This document shows, piece after piece, positions 10,002-61,478 of a DNA stretch of 64,000 nt. Every line of letters starts with the position of its first letter. Position 1 is the stretch's first letter. The notes below the pieces were generated by a model, which ran no database searches, was not told the DNA's origin, and saw nothing but the letters and a program-made list of their open reading frames with translations. The DNA is from a virus, in the IMG/VR virus record IMGVR_UViG_3300045988_159607, one strand, 5' to 3'. Both the position numbers and the translations under genes were made by a program.

Positions 10002-10568
10002 ATGTTACGGTTTTATTATACGGTCAGTTCGGGATATAACAGTCCGCAGACAAAAGTTTCAGATTCGTTGGGAGGGTACAAATCTTCTACACCTGTGCCT
10101 AATGATGTTTTTGGCAATTTATTTGATGAAATAAGCCTTAATTTGGCTTCAAATCCTCGTAGCCAATATGTTGCTCTTGTTTTGAAAAATGAGGGCACAG
10201 AAACGCTTAAAAACGTTGAATTATGGTTTTCTTCTGTAACGGATAACCCCTACGGAACAATCACAGTAGGAGCTATAGGGATGGGAAAGGATGAAGAAGA
10301 AAATCCGGTTACTTCGCGCACATCTTCCATAAACGAAAAGCCTTATTGGATTCAGTTCCATGAAGCAAAAGAGGAAGAACCGGTATCGCTTGGCGATATG
10401 GAAGCAGGAAAAGAAATCTGTTTGTGGTTTTGTCGGTCGCTTGATAAGGAAATTATAAAAAGTGACTATGATCTTGTGGCAGAGAGAGATATGAACACGC
10501 AGAACCGCTATAAAAAGGTGGAAAAGCAGACAGAGGAAATTTTTAACATTAATTTGCTTTGGGAATAA
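10002..10568 (+). CDS. hypothetical structural protein
   Basis: 188-aa ORF, 5 nt after the upstream stop. It is the last gene before a terminator. Confidence 0.5.
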   Translation: MLRFYYTVSSGYNSPQTKVSDSLGGYKSSTPVPNDVFGNLFDEISLNLASNPRSQYVALVLKNEGTETLKNVELWFSSVTDNPYGTITVGAIGMGKDEEENPVTSRTSSINEKPYWIQFHEAKEEEPVSLGDMEAGKEICLWFCRSLDKEIIKSDYDLVAERDMNTQNRYKKVEKQTEEIFNINLLWE

Positions 10569-19766: not shown

Positions 19767-20372
19767 ATGAAAACGAATAAAGTATTAAAAATATTACAAA
19801 TTACAAGACCTACTTTGACTAAATATGTCAAAGTAGGTAAAATCAGAGTAATCACAAAACCGAATGGTTTTTATGATTACAATGAAGATGATGTATATTC
19901 ACTCGCCGGTTATTCAACAAGAAGGTTAACGGTTTCATACTCAAGAGTTTCTACAAACAAGCAAAAGAAAGACCTTGAAAACCAAGAAAAATCAATCGTA
20001 TCTTATTGCAATAACAATGGGATAAGAGTTGATAAATCATACAAAGATATTGCAAGTGGAATGAACTTCGATAGGAAGCAGTTCCTTGAAATGTTTAACG
20101 ATATCATAGATAGAAAAATACAGACTGTTTATATAACATATAAGGATAGGTTGTCAAGAATTTCTTTTGATCTGTTTGAAAAACTTTTCAGGGAGTTTGG
20201 GTGTGAGATTATTGTAATAAACAATACGGAAGATAGAGAAACAAATGAATCAGAGATATTTGGAGAAATTATTTCCATGCTTCATTGTTTTGCTATGAAA
20301 ATGTACTCGAAAAGAAGAAAAAATAAACTTGAAATCGTAAGTAAGGATTTAGAAAATGAGATTAGTCTATAA
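19767..20372 (+). CDS. tnpA: IS607-type serine recombinase transposase (MerR-like HTH + resolvase domain)
   Basis: N-terminal HTH ILQITRPTLTKYVKVGKI. Catalytic VSYSRVSTNKQKKDLENQ. A TATATTTG box lies 4 nt upstream of the ATG. Confidence 0.8.
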   Translation: MKTNKVLKILQITRPTLTKYVKVGKIRVITKPNGFYDYNEDDVYSLAGYSTRRLTVSYSRVSTNKQKKDLENQEKSIVSYCNNNGIRVDKSYKDIASGMNFDRKQFLEMFNDIIDRKIQTVYITYKDRLSRISFDLFEKLFREFGCEIIVINNTEDRETNESEIFGEIISMLHCFAMKMYSKRRKNKLEIVSKDLENEISL

Positions 20373-21588
20373 GTTCAACATAGGGAAGAATGAAGATATA
20401 TCGAAGTTGTGCAAGGTTAGTAACAACCTGTATAACCAAGCTTTGTATGTCTTTCGGGAAACATTGAAAAATGAATCCAAATGGCTTTCCTATTTTGAAC
20501 TTGACAAAATCTTGAAGGATACAAGAAACTTGGATGGAGAAATAAATTACAGATTACTGAAGGCTCAATGTTCTCAACAGGTACTTAAACTACTTGATAA
20601 GAATATAAAAAGCTATTACAAATCTGTTCAGGATTATAAGAAATATCCAAATAAGTATAAAGAAAAACCGGGGCTTCCAAGTTATAGGAAAAGAGGTTCC
20701 GAGTTTAATATGTATTATACAAATCAAAATTGTAGAATAAGGATTGGTAAAATAATTCTTTCAAAGGAACTTTCGATAAGCATTCCTCAATATGAGAAGT
20801 ATTCTGATTTGCTTGAAAATTTCAAACAAGTAAGAATATTACCTAATCACATAGGGTATAGAATTGAAGTTATTTATGAAGTGGAAGATATTGAAATCCC
20901 TAAAAGTAAGGAAGAGAAAATAGCTTCTATTGATTTAGGTATTGACAATCTGGCGACTATTGTCAGTGAGGATTTTACTATTATTTTTAGTGGTAAATTT
21001 GTTAAATCACACAATAAGCTATTTAACAAGACATTAGCTGAATTGAATAGTATAAAAGATTCGCAAAAAATAAAAGGGGCAACGAAACGAATAAAGAAAT
21101 TATATTATGACAGGGATAATTACATAGAGGATGTATTTCATAAGATCAGTAGAAAGATAGTTGATTTGCTTATCGATTCTAAGATAACAAAATTAGTTGT
21201 AGGCTATAATAAGGGATGGAAAACTGGAGTAAATATAGGTAAAAGGAACAACCAGAAGTTTACACAAATCCCTTTTGCGAGATTGGTTAGTTACTTAGAA
21301 TACAAATGTGAATTAGCTGGTATTGAAATAGTTATTCATGAAGAATCATATACTTCAAAATGTGACTCTCTTGCATTTGAGAAGATAGGAAGACATGATA
21401 GCTATTTAGGAAGAAGGAAGAAACGAGGGTTGTTTCAATCTTCGGTAGGAAAGCTCATTAATGCTGATGTAAATGGTGCATTGAACATTATGAGAAAAGT
21501 AGTTGGTGATTCCTGTGAATCAATTCGTAGGATAATCGATAGAGGGTTATTGTTTAATCCGGTAAGGATTACGAATGTATTTTGTTAA
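20356..21588 (+). CDS. tnpB: TnpB (OrfB) RuvC-like RNA-guided nuclease
   Basis: RuvC-I ASIDLGIDNLAT, RuvC-II HEESYTSKCD, RuvC-III NADVNGALNI. Confidence 0.8.
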   Translation: MRLVYKFNIGKNEDISKLCKVSNNLYNQALYVFRETLKNESKWLSYFELDKILKDTRNLDGEINYRLLKAQCSQQVLKLLDKNIKSYYKSVQDYKKYPNKYKEKPGLPSYRKRGSEFNMYYTNQNCRIRIGKIILSKELSISIPQYEKYSDLLENFKQVRILPNHIGYRIEVIYEVEDIEIPKSKEEKIASIDLGIDNLATIVSEDFTIIFSGKFVKSHNKLFNKTLAELNSIKDSQKIKGATKRIKKLYYDRDNYIEDVFHKISRKIVDLLIDSKITKLVVGYNKGWKTGVNIGKRNNQKFTQIPFARLVSYLEYKCELAGIEIVIHEESYTSKCDSLAFEKIGRHDSYLGRRKKRGLFQSSVGKLINADVNGALNIMRKVVGDSCESIRRIIDRGLLFNPVRITNVFC

Positions 21589-56918: not shown

Positions 56919-57050
56919 CCTCACAGGACAAAACTCTTAAATAGACTTCTATAAGGGCGTTTTAAGACAAAATATACATTTATCTCATTGATTTTCTGCT
57001 ATTTACATATACAAAATCTCTAAATAGACCCCTTATAGACGAAAAACATT
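56919..57050. repeat. paralogous unit U1 (stem TCTATAAGGG / CCCTTATAGA enclosing a conserved 72-nt core)
   Basis: Aligns with U2, which lies 168 bp downstream. Stem arms at 56948-56957 and 57030-57039. Confidence 0.7.
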
Positions 57051-57086
57051 CCAAAAATCATCTACATCTGAATCATGTGCCCGACA

Positions 57087-57220
57087 CCTCACAAGAAATG
57101 AACTTAAAATACTATCCATATAGGGTTTCTCAAATTAAAGTACATATTTATCCTATTGATTTTCAACTATTTACATATATACGAAATTTTTAAAATCAGC
57201 TATATGGGGAATTTTCATAT
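57087..57220. repeat. paralogous unit U2 (stem CCATATAG / CTATATGG enclosing a conserved 76-nt core)
   Basis: Stem arms at 57116-57123 and 57200-57207. Shares the core TACAT(A)TTTATC..ATTGATTTTC..CTATTTACATATA with U1. Confidence 0.7.
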
Positions 57221-57655
57221 CAAACACTCCTGGGATTGTGGTAGGATAAAGGTTCTGTTCCTATATATCAGTTCTTTCTTGTCTTTTTGCTTTCTATGAG
57301 GGGGAGGGGTCTTTTGTTTTCCTACATATAGTTTTTCTTTGTTGATTTTTGAGAGTGGGTATATGTGGAAATCTGGTTTTTCTCTCCTATAGGGAAAATT
57401 TTGTGGGGTTGTCCATATCTATTCTTTTTCGGAAGGGGAGTCGGCTAAAGCCGCCTTTTTAACCCCTTCCGAGAGGGAATCGCTGCGCTCAATACATCAA
57501 AACCACCCATTTTTACAATTTGTAAAGTAAATTGCCAAAACAATGACAGTTTGAAAAACCCTCCTATTGGGGCTGGAAACCATTAAATTTTGATAGCAAA
57601 ATCCTATTTTTAATTTACAAAATGATACACTAAAATTACCAAAATCAGTCCAAAA

Positions 57656-57675
57656 TGTAAGAATATATTCTTACA
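57656..57675. promoter_or_regulatory. perfect 20-bp palindrome TGTAAGAATATATTCTTACA (operator-like)
   Basis: Consensus form of the motif found at 35191, 35211, 44168, 54509, 55853 and 57805. Confidence 0.6.
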
Positions 57676-58047
57676 AATCACAGGATTCTTCCTACTTCCG
57701 AGTAGTATCTATAGACACATTTGTAGCGATAGAATAGGTGTTGTTTCTTCTGATGAGAGCAAATCCTCCTATTTTAACAGGTGGCAACACTTTTGTTGTC
57801 TATTTGTAAAGGTATATTCTTACATTTTTAAAAAGGTAATTAACATTTGGGTAAAATGATACTAATTTTGAGGTAGGAAGACTTATTGTATATTTTTTAA
57901 ATGAGCATTAAAAATCGGTTTTTGGTAGTTTTTGAAGATAATATATTAAATATCAACAATTTATAAATTTTCATTCTTTGAGTGCGCCCTATATGCGAAA
58001 AAGTTTTACTTATTGTATTTTTTTGAATGAAAAATAGGCTTTGTTTG

Positions 58048-58112
58048 CCATAGTATAGTATTACATTTTCATGAAAAATGATTTTAACATTTCAAGTAAT
58101 ACTATACTATGG
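58048..58112 (-). terminator. 17-bp perfect-stem hairpin, 8 nt after the antirepressor-remnant stop
   Basis: CCATAGTATAGTATTAC-31 nt-GTAATACTATACTATGG. On the minus strand it is followed by a partly T-rich stretch. Confidence 0.5.
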
Positions 58113-58120
58113 GAAGATCG

Positions 58121-58375
58121 CTACATCTTGGAATAGTACTCCAGAAACTTGTTCAAGATATGCAGTTGTCCTGCCGGAGTTACCATAGGTGTCGATACGG
58201 TTATCGTACTTCCGTTTGGTTTCGTTATAACTCTTTTCTTGATCTCAAACAATCCTGATTCTATATAGCGTTGCATAGGCTGATTGTAATATTCTCCTTT
58301 TGTTCCCAGATAACCTTTCTTTCTTAACCACTTGAAGGTGATTATATACCACTTTACACCAAAATCGTAAAGTAA
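58121..58375 (-). pseudogene. C-terminal remnant of a phage antirepressor (KilAC/ANT-like domain) with no start codon
   Basis: Hand translation LLYDFGVKWYIITFKWLRKKGYLGTKGEYYNQPMQRYIESGLFEIKKRVITKPNGSTITVSTPMVTPAGQLHILNKFLEYYSKM*. It fits the pattern WL...G.l....N.P.Q.yi..GlFe.k......nG......t..vT..G. The frame is closed by a TAG inside the tnpB 3' end and has no upstream Met. Confidence 0.55.
58334..58361. repeat. inverted repeat, left arm, flanking solo tnpB
   Basis: GAAGGTGATTATATACCACTTTACACCA. 27 of 28 positions are complementary to 59659..59686. Confidence 0.85.
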
Positions 58376-58382
58376 TACATAT

Positions 58383-59606
58383 TTATACGGAAATCCGTAC
58401 CGGGTTCCACCAAAACCCTCTACTTTCTGGTAACATCGTTACATCAAAGGATTCTTTTTCTGATTTACGGATGATGTTAAAAGCTCCGTTTATATCAGCG
58501 TTGATTATCTTACCGGAAGAAGTTTTAAACAATCCTCGTTTGATTCTTCTTCCTTTATAGGATTCATGTTTACAAATCTTCTCATTATCCAAGAAACTAC
58601 ATTTAGAAGTATAAGATTCTTCAACAATCTTAACATTAATTCCTTCTAATGTTGCTTTATACGATATCATAGAGATAAACACATTGAAAGGAATAGACAC
58701 AAAGTTTTGATTATTACGTTTTCCGATATTGATCTCTTGTTTCCAGCATTTGTTATGACCGATTATGATCGTATTAATACCATTGGAAACTACATGATTA
58801 ATCAATATCCTACTTGCCTTATGAAGATAATCTTTGATCTTGTTGTTCCTTTTATTGGTTAATGACCTGATTTGTTTTGAAATCTGTTTATTGCCTTTTA
58901 ATTTAGATTTTAAGTATGATAATCTTTTATTATAATACTGGTTGATAGACTTCAAAGGTCTACCATTGATGATAAAACAAGAACCGTTGTTTGAAACACA
59001 GGAAGCTAAATTATCTAATCCTATATCAATACCAAGATAAGATTCATTATCTGACATAAGATCTTTTTCCTTCTTGTTGTAAATTATTTCAAGAACAATA
59101 TACCCATTCTTAGGAATGAATCTAAGTTGTTGAATATTTTGTTTATTGGTTCTTGTTGTAAAGGAAAACTGTTTTGGCAACTTAACAATGCCTTGCTTTA
59201 TCCATTTTTGAGAAAAAGCTGCGGTCGTAAAAACAGCAGTAAACAAACCGTCTTTGTTTAGATACCCAGGTATTCTAACAAATTCGGAATACTCACCTCT
59301 ATTCTTTTTATTAAGGAGATTAAAGAACGATTTAAAGTTTCTATCTACCATCATCAACACTTGTTGAGCAACTGGTGTTGGTAAAGCACGATAGTCAACA
59401 TCATTTTCTGTTTTCAACACTCTTTCGAGAGAATAATAGTTGAGGTATTTATACTTTACAGTATTATCATCTTTGTATTGAAAGTAGTGTTGTCTAACAA
59501 CATACAACCCTTTATTGTATAAGTTTTTGCACTTATGCAATAGGTCTTGAAGCTCATTGTAATATATTGAACTTTGTTTGATCGTATGTTGTTCGACTAA
59601 TCTCAT
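58383..59606 (-). CDS. tnpB: solo TnpB (OrfB) RuvC-like RNA-guided nuclease
   Basis: RuvC-I LGIDIGLDNLAS, RuvC-II VEESYTSKCS, RuvC-III NADINGAFNI. Start taken at MRLVEQ (compare MRLVYK in the other copy). A TATATTTG box lies 4 nt upstream. Confidence 0.8.
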   Translation of the reverse strand: MRLVEQHTIKQSSIYYNELQDLLHKCKNLYNKGLYVVRQHYFQYKDDNTVKYKYLNYYSLERVLKTENDVDYRALPTPVAQQVLMMVDRNFKSFFNLLNKKNRGEYSEFVRIPGYLNKDGLFTAVFTTAAFSQKWIKQGIVKLPKQFSFTTRTNKQNIQQLRFIPKNGYIVLEIIYNKKEKDLMSDNESYLGIDIGLDNLASCVSNNGSCFIINGRPLKSINQYYNKRLSYLKSKLKGNKQISKQIRSLTNKRNNKIKDYLHKASRILINHVVSNGINTIIIGHNKCWKQEINIGKRNNQNFVSIPFNVFISMISYKATLEGINVKIVEESYTSKCSFLDNEKICKHESYKGRRIKRGLFKTSSGKIINADINGAFNIIRKSEKESFDVTMLPESRGFWWNPVRISV

Positions 59607-59658
59607 GGCACAAATATAGAAATTATTATTTATAAATAAAAACAATTCGGTATATTTG

Positions 59659-59686
59659 TGGTGTAAAGTTGTATATAATCACCTTC
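59659..59686. repeat. inverted repeat, right arm, flanking solo tnpB
   Basis: TGGTGTAAAGTTGTATATAATCACCTTC. Confidence 0.85.
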
Positions 59687-59993
59687 GTTCATAACTTTAA
59701 ATATTTGATTTCGAGCAAAAGAAAACGGCTTTGCCCTTCCCGTTGCAATCAAATAAAGTAGAATAATCTTACTGTATTGGAAGATACAAAGCCGTTGAAA
59801 TATAGTTTAAGCATTGGTTATCAGAACAATACTCATTACTACAGTAAAACTACTCATTTTTATTTGATTGCATTACAAATATAGCAACAAATCTTTAATC
59901 ATAAAATGGATTATCTTACCGTATTATAATTTCATTTTTGTTGGAATTTAAGCATAAACATGGATTATATTACTTTTACTGACACACTCATAT

Positions 59994-60738
59994 TCATACT
60001 CCTTTAAATACAAATAGTTTCTCTGTTGGTTTGTATGTATTCTTTATAGACATGGCATTTGTAATTTGTTTCTCCCATATACATTCAAAGTCTTCGGGAG
60101 CACTATATTCGCTTACAAATACTTTAGCTTTTCTTGAAACTTTCCTTACCCACATCCAAAAACTATCATGATCAAAGTTTTTACTTGTTGAATATTGCTT
60201 TGTTCCCTTGTATGGCGGATCACAATAAACTATAGAATTTTCAGGTACATCAATATTTCTAAAATCCAAGCATGTAAATTTCACTCCTTGTATTTTAGGG
60301 ATGGTTTTGATTGTATTATTGATGTTTTCTTTAATATAGTCCCTTCCTTTTACATCGTGCCCTGAATAACCTCCGTCAAAAAATCTTCCATTAAAAGAAC
60401 CCATAAACCCGACCCATCCTATTAGAGCTGAATGTCTCATATCACAAATACCCCTTTCCTTTTTCTATTTTGTGATAATCTTCTCTTATTTCTTTATAGA
60501 AATTTCTTGTTATTTTAAATGGCAGGCTGTCAGTTCCATTCTTTTGAAGTTCTATAAACATATTAATCAAATATCTGTTTTTGTCGTTCGCTATCCTTTT
60601 ATACGATGCAGGTATTTCTTCTACGATAGAACAACTCCCGCAAAAGGCATCTATAAACGTTTCGTTGCCTTTTGATCCTTTTAGCAGGATGGGGATTATT
60701 TCGTTCCTTATCCTGCTTTTATTCCCCATATATTTCAT
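59994..60738 (-). pseudogene. Dam-like (D12-class) N6-adenine DNA methyltransferase split into two ORFs by a 1-nt frame change
   Basis: N-terminal half MKYMGNKSRI...FIDAFCGSCSIV (motif I) ends at a TGA at 60442-60444. The C-terminal half (GFMGSFNGRFF..., CDPPYKGT) starts 1 nt out of frame at 60440. Confidence 0.75.
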
Positions 60739-61478
60739 TTTTCTGGATTTTCAGCAGTTTCTAAAAGATATTCATTGCCCTCAAAAGGAATGCAACAGTT
60801 CCATATTATTCCATTGGAACATTCATACCTATAAGACAATCCATCAGAATAGTCCACAATTTCCCTTGCAAACAAACTGATATTCCATTTTTTATTTCCT
60901 TCTTTTCTTACCAACACTTTGTCAAACGGCTTAAACCCATATTTCGGCTTTTCTTCAATCCCGAAGAAGCGTTTCAAATATTCTTTTGCTTTTGGCTCCT
61001 TGCTTGCCTTTAATGCGTCAACCAACTTTTGTCTTTCGGACTCAGTGGCAAGAGTAAAGCGTTCTATGTTATTCTTGTTGGCTGCATCTATATCGCCATC
61101 TCCTATATAAAGGATTCCTTGAAAATTAATATACGCATACAAAGATGTAGAGTATCTCCCATATCCGCTTAGAATAAAGGCAAAATTTCCTTCTTCGTTG
61201 CTTAACACATCTCCATCTTTAAATGTAATATATTCTGGAACTTCAAGAAGGAGGCGATTTTCGCTGCTAAGTGCTTTTCCTGTAGCACAAAACCAATCCG
61301 CTGATACAGTAATCGAATGAATTACAACCAATAACGGATAATTTGACAAATTATCTTCATATACGATTTCTGCCCTATCTCGTCCTTTCTCTGTCACAAT
61401 CCGACCTGATATTTTCCCTTCTCTTATTCTCTTCGCCGTTTCTAAATCAAACGGTATTGTTACCATTTTATGCTCCAT
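60735..61478 (-). CDS. hypothetical protein
   Basis: 247-aa ORF. Its stop overlaps the next start. Confidence 0.55.
   Translation of the reverse strand: MEHKMVTIPFDLETAKRIREGKISGRIVTEKGRDRAEIVYEDNLSNYPLLVVIHSITVSADWFCATGKALSSENRLLLEVPEYITFKDGDVLSNEEGNFAFILSGYGRYSTSLYAYINFQGILYIGDGDIDAANKNNIERFTLATESERQKLVDALKASKEPKAKEYLKRFFGIEEKPKYGFKPFDKVLVRKEGNKKWNISLFAREIVDYSDGLSYRYECSNGIIWNCCIPFEGNEYLLETAENPEK

Follow-up and report, generated by a model that had tools for sequence, protein, structure and literature searches.

TnpB RNA-guided nucleases are carried by IS200/IS605 and IS607 elements, which have neither terminal inverted repeats (TIRs) nor target duplications (PMC13565253). Prokaryotic TnpBs are also found in the branches DDE-1 to DDE-6, where solo TnpBs have the ends of the transposase-bearing elements (Altae-Tran et al. 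2023, PMC10691335); the DDE-linked families named in a 2026 review are ISL2, IS630 and IS1031, and OMEGA nucleases in prokaryotic DDE transposons are described there as rare, their benefit to the transposon being left open (PMC13565253). Eukaryotes, as well as the viruses infecting them, contain Fanzor1 and Fanzor2* elements (Bao & Jurka 2013, PMC3627910; Yoon et al. 2023, PMC10711439), and the right-end element RNA (reRNA) of Fanzor1 has the TIR and the target duplication in its scaffold, with the guide ~15 nt beyond the duplication (PMC10711439). Members of the IS1595 family generate 8-bp duplications and encode a transposase combining a Zn finger at the N terminus with a DDE_Tnp_IS1595 domain at the C terminus; their eukaryotic relatives are the Merlin elements, the TIRs of which carry a conserved terminal GG (PMC8101967). 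The present analysis concerns a tnpB cassette in a 64,000-nucleotide stretch of viral DNA (IMG/VR record IMGVR_UViG_3300045988_159607; in the following, the window is this whole stretch, and related loci are cited by L numbers). With high confidence, the 1347-bp segment is a non-autonomous IS1595-family transposon, that is, a mobile insertion cassette, with a predicted RNA-guided nuclease as its cargo:

58337-59683, minus strand: mobile unit of 1347 bp, the tnpB cassette bounded by 24-bp terminal inverted repeats
58383-59606, minus strand: tnpB, 407 aa; Pfam OrfB_IS605 5e-22, Cas12f1-like TNB 7.5e-12

The cassette resembles IS1595 insertion sequences with passengers, as well as the mobile insertion cassettes (MICs) conceived for MIC231/IS231 in Bacillus, in its repeats starting with GG, its 8-bp duplications and its cargo without a transposase. 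It differs from both in that the cargo is an RNA-guided nuclease and that a predicted RNA uses one of the repeats. In common with the DDE-TnpB branches, TnpB resides in an element with inverted terminal repeats and has its 3' end <250 bp from one end, and solo copies share the ends of transposase elements, implying mobilisation in trans (PMC10691335). Unlike in those branches, transposase and tnpB never occurred in one element in the sample analysed here, and the hosts are gut Bacteroidales phages. The solo tnpB genes of IS200/IS605 (IS1341-type) and IS607 elements encode a protein of the same family and have an omega-RNA overlapping the 3' end of the gene, but the cassette has terminal repeats and duplications and no adjacent Y1 or serine-recombinase TnpA. 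Like Fanzors, the cassettes place a TnpB-family nuclease with a relocated RuvC-II glutamate in cut-and-paste TIR transposons that are often non-autonomous, the TIR forms part of the predicted guide-RNA scaffold, and IS1595 is a bacterial relative of the Merlin superfamily. Unlike Fanzors they are prokaryotic, and Merlin is not among the reported Fanzor carriers; because the RuvC-I motif is D-I-G rather than the D-P-G of Fanzors, the cassette TnpB is no 'pro-Fanzor'. TnpBs linked to DDE transposons are thus already known, and the features of the present case are the IS1595/Merlin-type shell, the strictly trans-dependent cassettes, three captured TnpB lineages, a repeat that is probably reused as an RNA stem, and candidate footprints of a target-adjacent motif (TAM). 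No title or abstract in the literature searched pairs TnpB with IS1595, and IS1595 is absent from the main texts of PMC13565253 and PMC10691335; the supplement of the latter may hold an IS1595-linked branch.

The initial annotation had described a solo tnpB without an adjacent tnpA between inverted repeats of 28-31 bp. The first observation was borne out: no transposase gene adjoins the cassette tnpB, no IS1595 transposase was detected anywhere in the window by tblastn, and the only tnpA in the window is that of an IS607 serine recombinase (19767-20372). The inverted repeat is likewise real (58334-58364 and 59656-59686; 31 nt, 94% complementary, 1291 nt between the arms), but its functional part is limited to 24-26 bp starting at GG, both ends beginning GGTGATT. 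The outer GAA/TTC are flanking bases matching by chance, and the right-hand TTC represents the first bases of the target duplication TTCGTTCA. The consensus of both ends is GGTGATTATATAC[C/A]ACTTTACACC, and the ACAAC variant marks the transposase-proximal end in autonomous elements:

58337-58360: right-end (RE) repeat on the 3' side of tnpB, ACCAC variant, GGTGATTATATACCACTTTACACC; also bounds transposase-carrying elements
59660-59683: left-end (LE) repeat on the 5' side of tnpB, ACAAC variant, reverse complement of GGTGATTATATACAACTTTACACC

A chance or one-off duplication, with the repeat absent at homologous tnpB copies, can be dismissed: the AT-rich context is all that speaks for it, whereas the window contains the 24-nt repeat core exactly two times, with 0.00 expected from 100 shuffles, and the repeat is present at both ends of hundreds of copies. 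Among GenBank phages, megablast returned a single match, in the crAss-like phage csAssE-Sib (window 58336-59683, 92% identity), where the surroundings of the copy differ, a 'muzzle' structural gene lying on one side and hypothetical genes on the other, and the alignment ends at both repeat termini. The paper on csAssE-Sib notes merely two TnpB genes. An exact-pattern scan of IMG/VR with GGTGATTATATACMACTTTACACC gave at least 120 loci, most of those listed being a plus/minus repeat pair ~1323 bp apart; dozens of copies have the same repeat-to-repeat spacing of 1345-1349 bp, and a protein-based scan added 80 further tnpB loci with 81-96% identity. The ~1.3-kb TnpB cassettes, found between 57 distinct flank pairs, display 16 perfect 8-bp duplications and 4 with one mismatch, all directly outside GG...CC; the cassette sites with duplications include 17 sites of type A, the TnpB lineage of the window (see below). 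Since homology breakpoints and duplications coincide with the repeat termini, the boundaries of the cassette are fixed.

The same data bear on the proposal that a site-specific recombinase flips the 1.3-kb segment between the repeats and thereby switches expression. Repeats of ~30 bp do flank a promoter-like box, and a serine recombinase is encoded elsewhere in the window; however, that recombinase overlaps its own tnpB in a canonical IS607 element 38 kb away, and with cassettes oriented by their open reading frame (ORF), no reversed allele between the same flanks was found in the 57 distinct flank pairs. Moreover, the segment is accompanied by its repeats at many unrelated sites, where it has 8-bp duplications, and these repeats also bound a DDE transposase gene. 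An inverton is consequently very improbable, and the scar of an inversion is unsupported as well, the repeat being common to hundreds of elements at different sites. The promoter-like box itself is as follows:

59611-59618, minus strand: promoter-like box TATATTTG, 4 nt upstream of the tnpB ATG; kept in csAssE-Sib

It resembles the Bacteroidetes -7 promoter element (consensus TAnnTTTG), and its promoter function is a prediction. It is part of a 25-nt imperfect palindrome (72%) at 59609-59660 with two divergent TAnnTTTG boxes, which is also kept in csAssE-Sib; the second box (59652-59659, plus strand) points outward via the left-end repeat into the flank and represents a possible outward promoter.

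The history of the insertion can be followed at the antirepressor gene next to the cassette. No close relatives of the window flanks were found among GenBank phage records by megablast; relatives with an empty site were retrieved via exact-pattern scans of IMG/VR with both flanks. In these (L136, L137, L123, L125-L128, L130 and L131), the flank homology stops at 58336 and resumes at 59684, with ~579 bp in place of the cassette. This segment completes an intact 287-aa Bro-N/KilAC antirepressor ORF in L136, the uninterrupted gene for which a search among relatives had been suggested, and the empty site of L136 contains a single TTCGTTCA. L133 combines an intact antirepressor body with the cassette at its 5' end; TTCGTTCA lies on one side of the cassette and TTCATTCA on the other. 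The window and L122 hold the same insertion as L133, but 587 bp are missing, made up of the 579 bp and the duplication copy on the left, and this deletion starts exactly at the repeat terminus on the tnpB 3' side. The two parts of the site left in the window are:

58121-58336, minus strand: antirepressor remnant, the C-terminal part of a Bro-N/KilAC protein; Pfam ANT 8.8e-16
59684-59691: retained copy of the target duplication, TTCGTTCA, corresponding to antirepressor codons 1-3 (ATGAACGAA, minus strand)

We infer a deletion event in the history of the window copy, which has no target duplication in any register and a repeat abutting the gene remnant because of the adjacent 587-bp deletion. 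Deletions beginning at a transposon end are a classic result of intramolecular transposition or of recombination between copies. The left arm had been placed inside the antirepressor coding remnant, and the right arm had been read as an inverted copy of that coding piece. Neither holds: the antirepressor homology stops at 58336, the Pfam ANT match starts after the repeat-encoded residues, and the arms are transposon ends; the repeat seemed to lie inside the antirepressor frame because the frame runs on into the transposon end. Further rearrangements adjoin related cassettes. Compared with the window, L122 is missing a further ~2 kb on the left-end side, and many cassette alleles were found that share the left flank but differ on the right (L003, L040, L059, L096, L106) or share the right flank (L017, L041, L066); these one-flank-shared alleles show junction shifts of 6, 8 or 14 nt or larger deletions. 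In these phages, the DNA next to a cassette seems particularly prone to rearrangement.

The assignment to IS1595 follows from larger elements with the same ends. In other gut-phage contigs, cassette-type ends bound transposase elements of 2.8-5.5 kb, and the same 24-bp repeats lie 2.8-3.9 kb apart in L042, L108, L109, L013 and L024. Elements of the L042 type encode a 307-aa protein with a DDE_Tnp_IS1595 domain (Pfam 4e-42), which has 237 relatives in viral contigs. From these, 80 loci were kept and 39 distinct repeat-bounded elements measured, of which 18 have perfect 8-bp target duplications and 1 a duplication with a single mismatch. The repeat pair flanks the transposase gene in three clades (~99%, 71% and 51-55% identity), no tnpB was found inside autonomous elements at the 80 kept loci, and seven contigs hold an autonomous element plus a TnpB cassette or a related flank, one of them being a relative of the window phage. 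A TIR-bounded mobile cassette, one of the possibilities raised initially, is thus supported by the multiple contexts, the 8-bp duplications, the empty site and the ends shared with an IS1595 transposase. The subgroup is possibly ISNwi1-like, a group with ends of the form ggnnatTAT. Being non-autonomous and of IS1595 type, the cassette is presumably moved in trans by an IS1595-type transposase, as judged from the shared ends.

The autonomous elements carry passenger genes of their own, encoding a TRL-family lipoprotein, a DUF5640 protein, an outer membrane protein (OMP) beta-barrel-like protein and a small chromo-like protein (L042 179-3331, L108 6000-9849, L013 1973-5482); the surface-protein-like passengers may be phage-delivered modifiers of the host cell surface. 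Related ends were also found in Bacteroidales (Alloprevotella, Bacteroides, Alistipes and a rumen metagenome-assembled genome, MAG). In the rumen MAG RUG10609 (L140-L152), at least 11 contigs have the end GGTAATTATATACAACTTTACACAAAAATAATTTAAAATAT... followed by conserved internal sequence, which points to a high-copy element of the cassette repeat family in a bacterial genome. The repeat scan identified no tnpB cassette in bacterial genomes and no host-borne copy.

With regard to the cargo, the catalytic residues of TnpB were assigned from alignment alone. The RuvC triad consists of D194 (GIDIG), E329/E330 (VEESYTSKC) and D371 (NADING, an NADxN motif), which show no or almost no variation among 15 aligned relatives. 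The canonical position of the RuvC-II glutamate is occupied by glycine (IIIGHN), and the glutamate lies 6-7 residues before the first Zn-finger Cys. The triad thus appears intact in the relocated-glutamate arrangement, a class that has been defined and is considered active (PMC10711439, PMC10691335). A phmmer search against PDB sequences (E<=1e-3) returned no matching solved structure. The closest TnpB without repeats, P0074 (58% identical), is encoded directly after a resolvase-type tnpA in IS607 elements, the right end of which has no cassette-like repeat, and inside the cassette no IS607-like end sequences remain. In L159 and L160, with TnpBs 56-61% identical, the repeat follows directly after the stop codon, and the association between repeat and TnpB is consequently old. 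The window also contains a canonical IS607 element (19767-21588, plus strand), 38 kb from the cassette, in which a 201-aa MerR helix-turn-helix (HTH)/serine-recombinase tnpA (19767-20372) overlaps a 410-aa tnpB (20356-21588). The latter protein is 37% identical to the cassette TnpB and shares the relocated-glutamate pattern (VVGYNKGWK...HEESYTSKC). The IS607 element and the IS1595-type cassette thus give the window two TnpB elements that are mobilised by different systems.

The 3' region of tnpB is predicted to encode an omega-RNA. The last 128 nt of 29 distinct copies, read in tnpB sense, were aligned and folded with RNAalifold, giving the following elements:

58337-58450, minus strand: predicted omega-RNA scaffold, ~114 nt, five helices; overlaps the last ~68 nt of tnpB
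58343-58381, minus strand: helix 5, in which post-stop sequence pairs with the inner half of the RE repeat; 14 pairs
58317-58336, minus strand: putative guide UUCAAGUGGUUAAGAAAGAA, flank that would be read through from the RE end

In this alignment 98.4% of the cells are paired, and 10 pairs show compensatory changes, compared with 2.9+-1.1 in column shuffles (0/500 reach this number) and 0-4 when the partners are slid by 1-3 columns. Compensation extends into the coding part, where GUAAC/GUUAC is replaced by GUAAG/CUUAC at the expense of two altered codons. Helix 5 is 97.8% paired; G.U makes up 21% in the tnpB-sense strand, whereas an antisense reading would leave 23% unpaired, and this strand bias of G.U argues for RNA rather than a DNA cruciform. 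It is kept in L159 and L160 and absent at either end of the nearest autonomous elements. The RE repeat therefore probably doubles as the last stem of the omega-RNA. The initial annotation had favoured a DNA-level role of the repeats over an RNA stem; this stands insofar as pairing between the two arms is improbable, and not for the left arm, which joins the local stem. A long-range RNA stem between the arms was rejected, the right arm lying upstream of the promoter-like box and the arms being transposon ends. An Rfam scan of 57000-61000 (E<=1) recovered no known RNA family at the cassette, the sole matches being two weak miRNA-like ones on an unrelated hairpin at 58042-58117. Downstream of helix 5 only 7 nt (AAUCACC) are left before the flank, and any guide must consequently come from flanking DNA; that the repeat itself is the guide was rejected, as it sits in the stem. 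The candidate guide UUCAAGUGGUUAAGAAAGAA now matches the interior of intact antirepressor alleles, with TTA preceding it in L133-like alleles. A flank-derived guide for TnpB would be analogous to what is described for the reRNAs of TnpB and Fanzors, Fanzor1 being the closest precedent for the arrangement (PMC10711439).

These results also speak to a nested origin, in which an IS607-type tnpB inserted into a miniature repeat element and uses a fixed guide against the repeat or the corresponding miniature inverted-repeat transposable element (MITE). The 51-bp palindrome in L037 (5924-5974), two back-to-back copies of the same repeat in inverted arrangement around an AAAAGC spacer of the tnpB 3' region, would agree with such a precursor, as would the fact that the closest repeat-less relatives are IS607 TnpBs. 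However, a cassette that underwent microhomology deletion is the simpler source of L037, the cassette contains no IS607-like ends, the inner half of the repeat belongs to a covarying stem, and the 7 nt after it are too short for a guide. Lineage-specific flank motifs, described below, are moreover unexpected with a fixed internal guide. The nested origin is thus unlikely.

Several shorter derivatives retain this region. Internally deleted copies (L061, L027, L009) keep the last 97-125 nt. Elements of 324-331 bp (L049 8777-9100 and 10289-10612; L073 7396-7726) keep only the omega-RNA-like last ~125 nt, ~75% identical there and with compensated stems, plus ~200 nt of unrelated sequence; in L049 two inverted copies bracket ~1.2 kb, like a composite transposon. 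Elements of ~80-110 bp are also among the miniature derivatives (L113 around 2970; L051, L075, L100), which probably represent either cassettes reduced by microhomology deletion or MITEs from the same family. Relative to L016, L090 (~10221-10252) has a tandem duplicate of the last 8 bp of the RE (TAATCACC) beside the element; as 8 bp is the target duplication length, this suggests insertion into, or repair at, the transposon end.

Three TnpB lineages were found to occupy the same IS1595-type shells, and each has its 3' end at one of the repeats. Type A is the TnpB of the window; type B (L118a, L128; L118 1611-2930, L128 from 1029) is 41% identical to it, and type C (L071b, L091c, L023; L071 11900-13230, L091 4665-5995, L023 8324-9655) is 22-25% identical and has the canonical IIEDL glutamate and a CxxC zinc finger. 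Type B and C cassettes measure 1306-1332 bp, with further loci of these lineages in L329-L460; the stop codon of type C falls within the repeat, and the L023 gene is broken into two ORFs. Read in tnpB sense, the left-side bases 5' of the duplication and the first bases of the duplication form lineage-specific motifs:

Type A: T-W-A before the boundary (17/20, 19/20, 19/20), T after it (19/20)
Type B, sites with duplications: T-A-A before (16/18, 18/18, 18/18), A-A after (16/18, 17/18)
Type B, 30 distinct left flanks: T-A-A before (25, 29, 28), A-A after (27, 22)
Type C, 16 distinct left flanks: A-A-A before (12, 14, 15), T after (14)
Autonomous elements, weak signal: A at -1 in 14/19, T at 1 in 13/19, T at -3 in 4/19

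The target preference of a DDE transpososome is expected to be roughly palindromic, whereas there is little signal at the mirror positions of the right side, type A sites matching in only 9/20 and 12/20 (Fisher p = 0.001 and 0.02). The type B motif is constant across two repeat subtypes, and the first base after the RE repeat is lineage-specific even at rearranged junctions. Of four new type A junctions checked against a known intact allele, three are preceded by TTA (the window via L133, L031/L009 and L021/L001) and the fourth (L040/L033) by ATA. In the simplest reading, the lineage motif would be a TAM immediately 5' of the target duplication.

In combination, these observations are best accommodated by a cassette with RNA-guided cargo that works as follows. 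An IS1595-type DDE transposase would recognise the 24-bp repeats; it would act in trans, its source being larger elements that share these ends and circulate among the same gut phages, at times even in one genome with the cassette. Insertion duplicates 8 bp of the target. The window copy landed in antirepressor codons 1-3 at TTCGTTCA and later lost 587 bp. The cargo would consist of the TnpB nuclease and an omega-RNA, the scaffold of which overlaps the end of tnpB, so that the RE repeat would have two jobs, as transposase site in DNA and as scaffold stem in RNA. Transcription would leave the element, and the guide would be copied from the flank, starting with the target duplication. TnpB could then cut genomes with an unoccupied site if T-W-A followed by T lies just 5' of it, and cutting may favour retention of the cassette or its copying via recombination between co-infecting phages. 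An insertion or deletion junction would persist if it yields a guide capable of targeting the unoccupied allele.

The observed ends, 8-bp duplications, three allele states, transposase-shared ends, conserved RNA structure and flank motifs underlie this explanation, from which we infer transposition in trans, guide use, cleavage and homing. We assign a probability of roughly 0.8 to the complete explanation, an IS1595 cassette plus RNA-guided cargo; for the part concerning omega-RNA, TAM and homing, the balance of evidence is only slightly favourable.

Several points weigh against it. The window copy has neither a target duplication nor a transposase, and its mobility is therefore deduced from sister copies. 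The 307-aa transposase scores 20.2 bits for Zn_ribbon_IS1595, below the Pfam cut-off of 25.4. The 5' end and 3' extension of the omega-RNA, as well as its promoter, are predictions. The motifs could reflect the target preferences of different transposase clades, and autonomous sites with exactly the same ends are few (~4). Two further points favour a passenger TnpB, with the DDE transposase alone moving the cassette and the motifs and hairpin being properties of the transposase and of the DNA ends. Subterminal hairpins exist at some other IS1595-type ends (L291, L301, L305), where they may have a DNA-level role, and ~65% of the cassette copies have no duplication, similar to the 51% in autonomous elements; duplication loss in cassettes may stem from intramolecular transposition, recombination between copies or nuclease-induced deletion. 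The weak preference of autonomous elements for A before and T after the same boundary points in the same direction. On the other hand, a mere passenger does not account for the invariant catalytic residues, for covariation inside a coding region with a G.U strand bias pointing to RNA, for one-sided, non-palindromic motifs that track the TnpB lineage even across the type B repeat subtypes, or for the fact that three independent TnpB lineages all have the 3' end on the same side of the shell. It is accordingly considered improbable, and the functional cargo is retained as the preferred explanation. A broader extension is put forward tentatively and is, in its entirety, somewhat less likely than not: IS1595/Merlin-type shells in gut crAss-like and related phages would repeatedly have captured TnpB-omega-RNA modules (at least two, probably three lineages), with the nuclease functionally coupled to the transposon, the repeat serving as stem and the duplication and flank as guide, such that only TAM-adjacent insertions persist or spread by RNA-guided homing.

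Outside the cassette, an inverted repeat at 58045-58064/58096-58115 (20 nt, 95%), downstream of the antirepressor remnant, can form a hairpin, the one with the weak miRNA-like Rfam matches, and an inverted repeat at 59744-59776/59840-59872 (33 nt, 82%) can form another just outside the cassette; these flanking hairpins may be terminators. The right neighbour (59994-60738, minus strand) is a D12-class N6-adenine methyltransferase split into two adjacent ORFs of 98 aa (Pfam positions 1-90) and 148 aa (positions 144-203), which suggests that the gene is frameshifted or split, with the middle of the domain missing.

For the biology of these elements, the cassettes provide an abundant natural example, present in human-gut phages in hundreds of copies and with TnpBs of three lineages, and their empty, filled and deleted alleles together with the predicted TAMs make the question of whether OMEGA nucleases can benefit a DDE transposon directly testable. 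They link a bacterial Merlin relative with relocated-glutamate TnpBs and parallel the capture of Fanzors by eukaryotic TIR transposons. The finding also explains a puzzle in the annotation of crAss-like phages, namely solo 'transposases' with inverted repeats and truncated neighbour genes, and supplies compact (~400 aa) TnpBs with candidate scaffolds and TAMs. If the homing reading is true, the cassettes would give the Fanzor arrangement a counterpart in prokaryotes, and OMEGA nucleases could serve cut-and-paste transposons.

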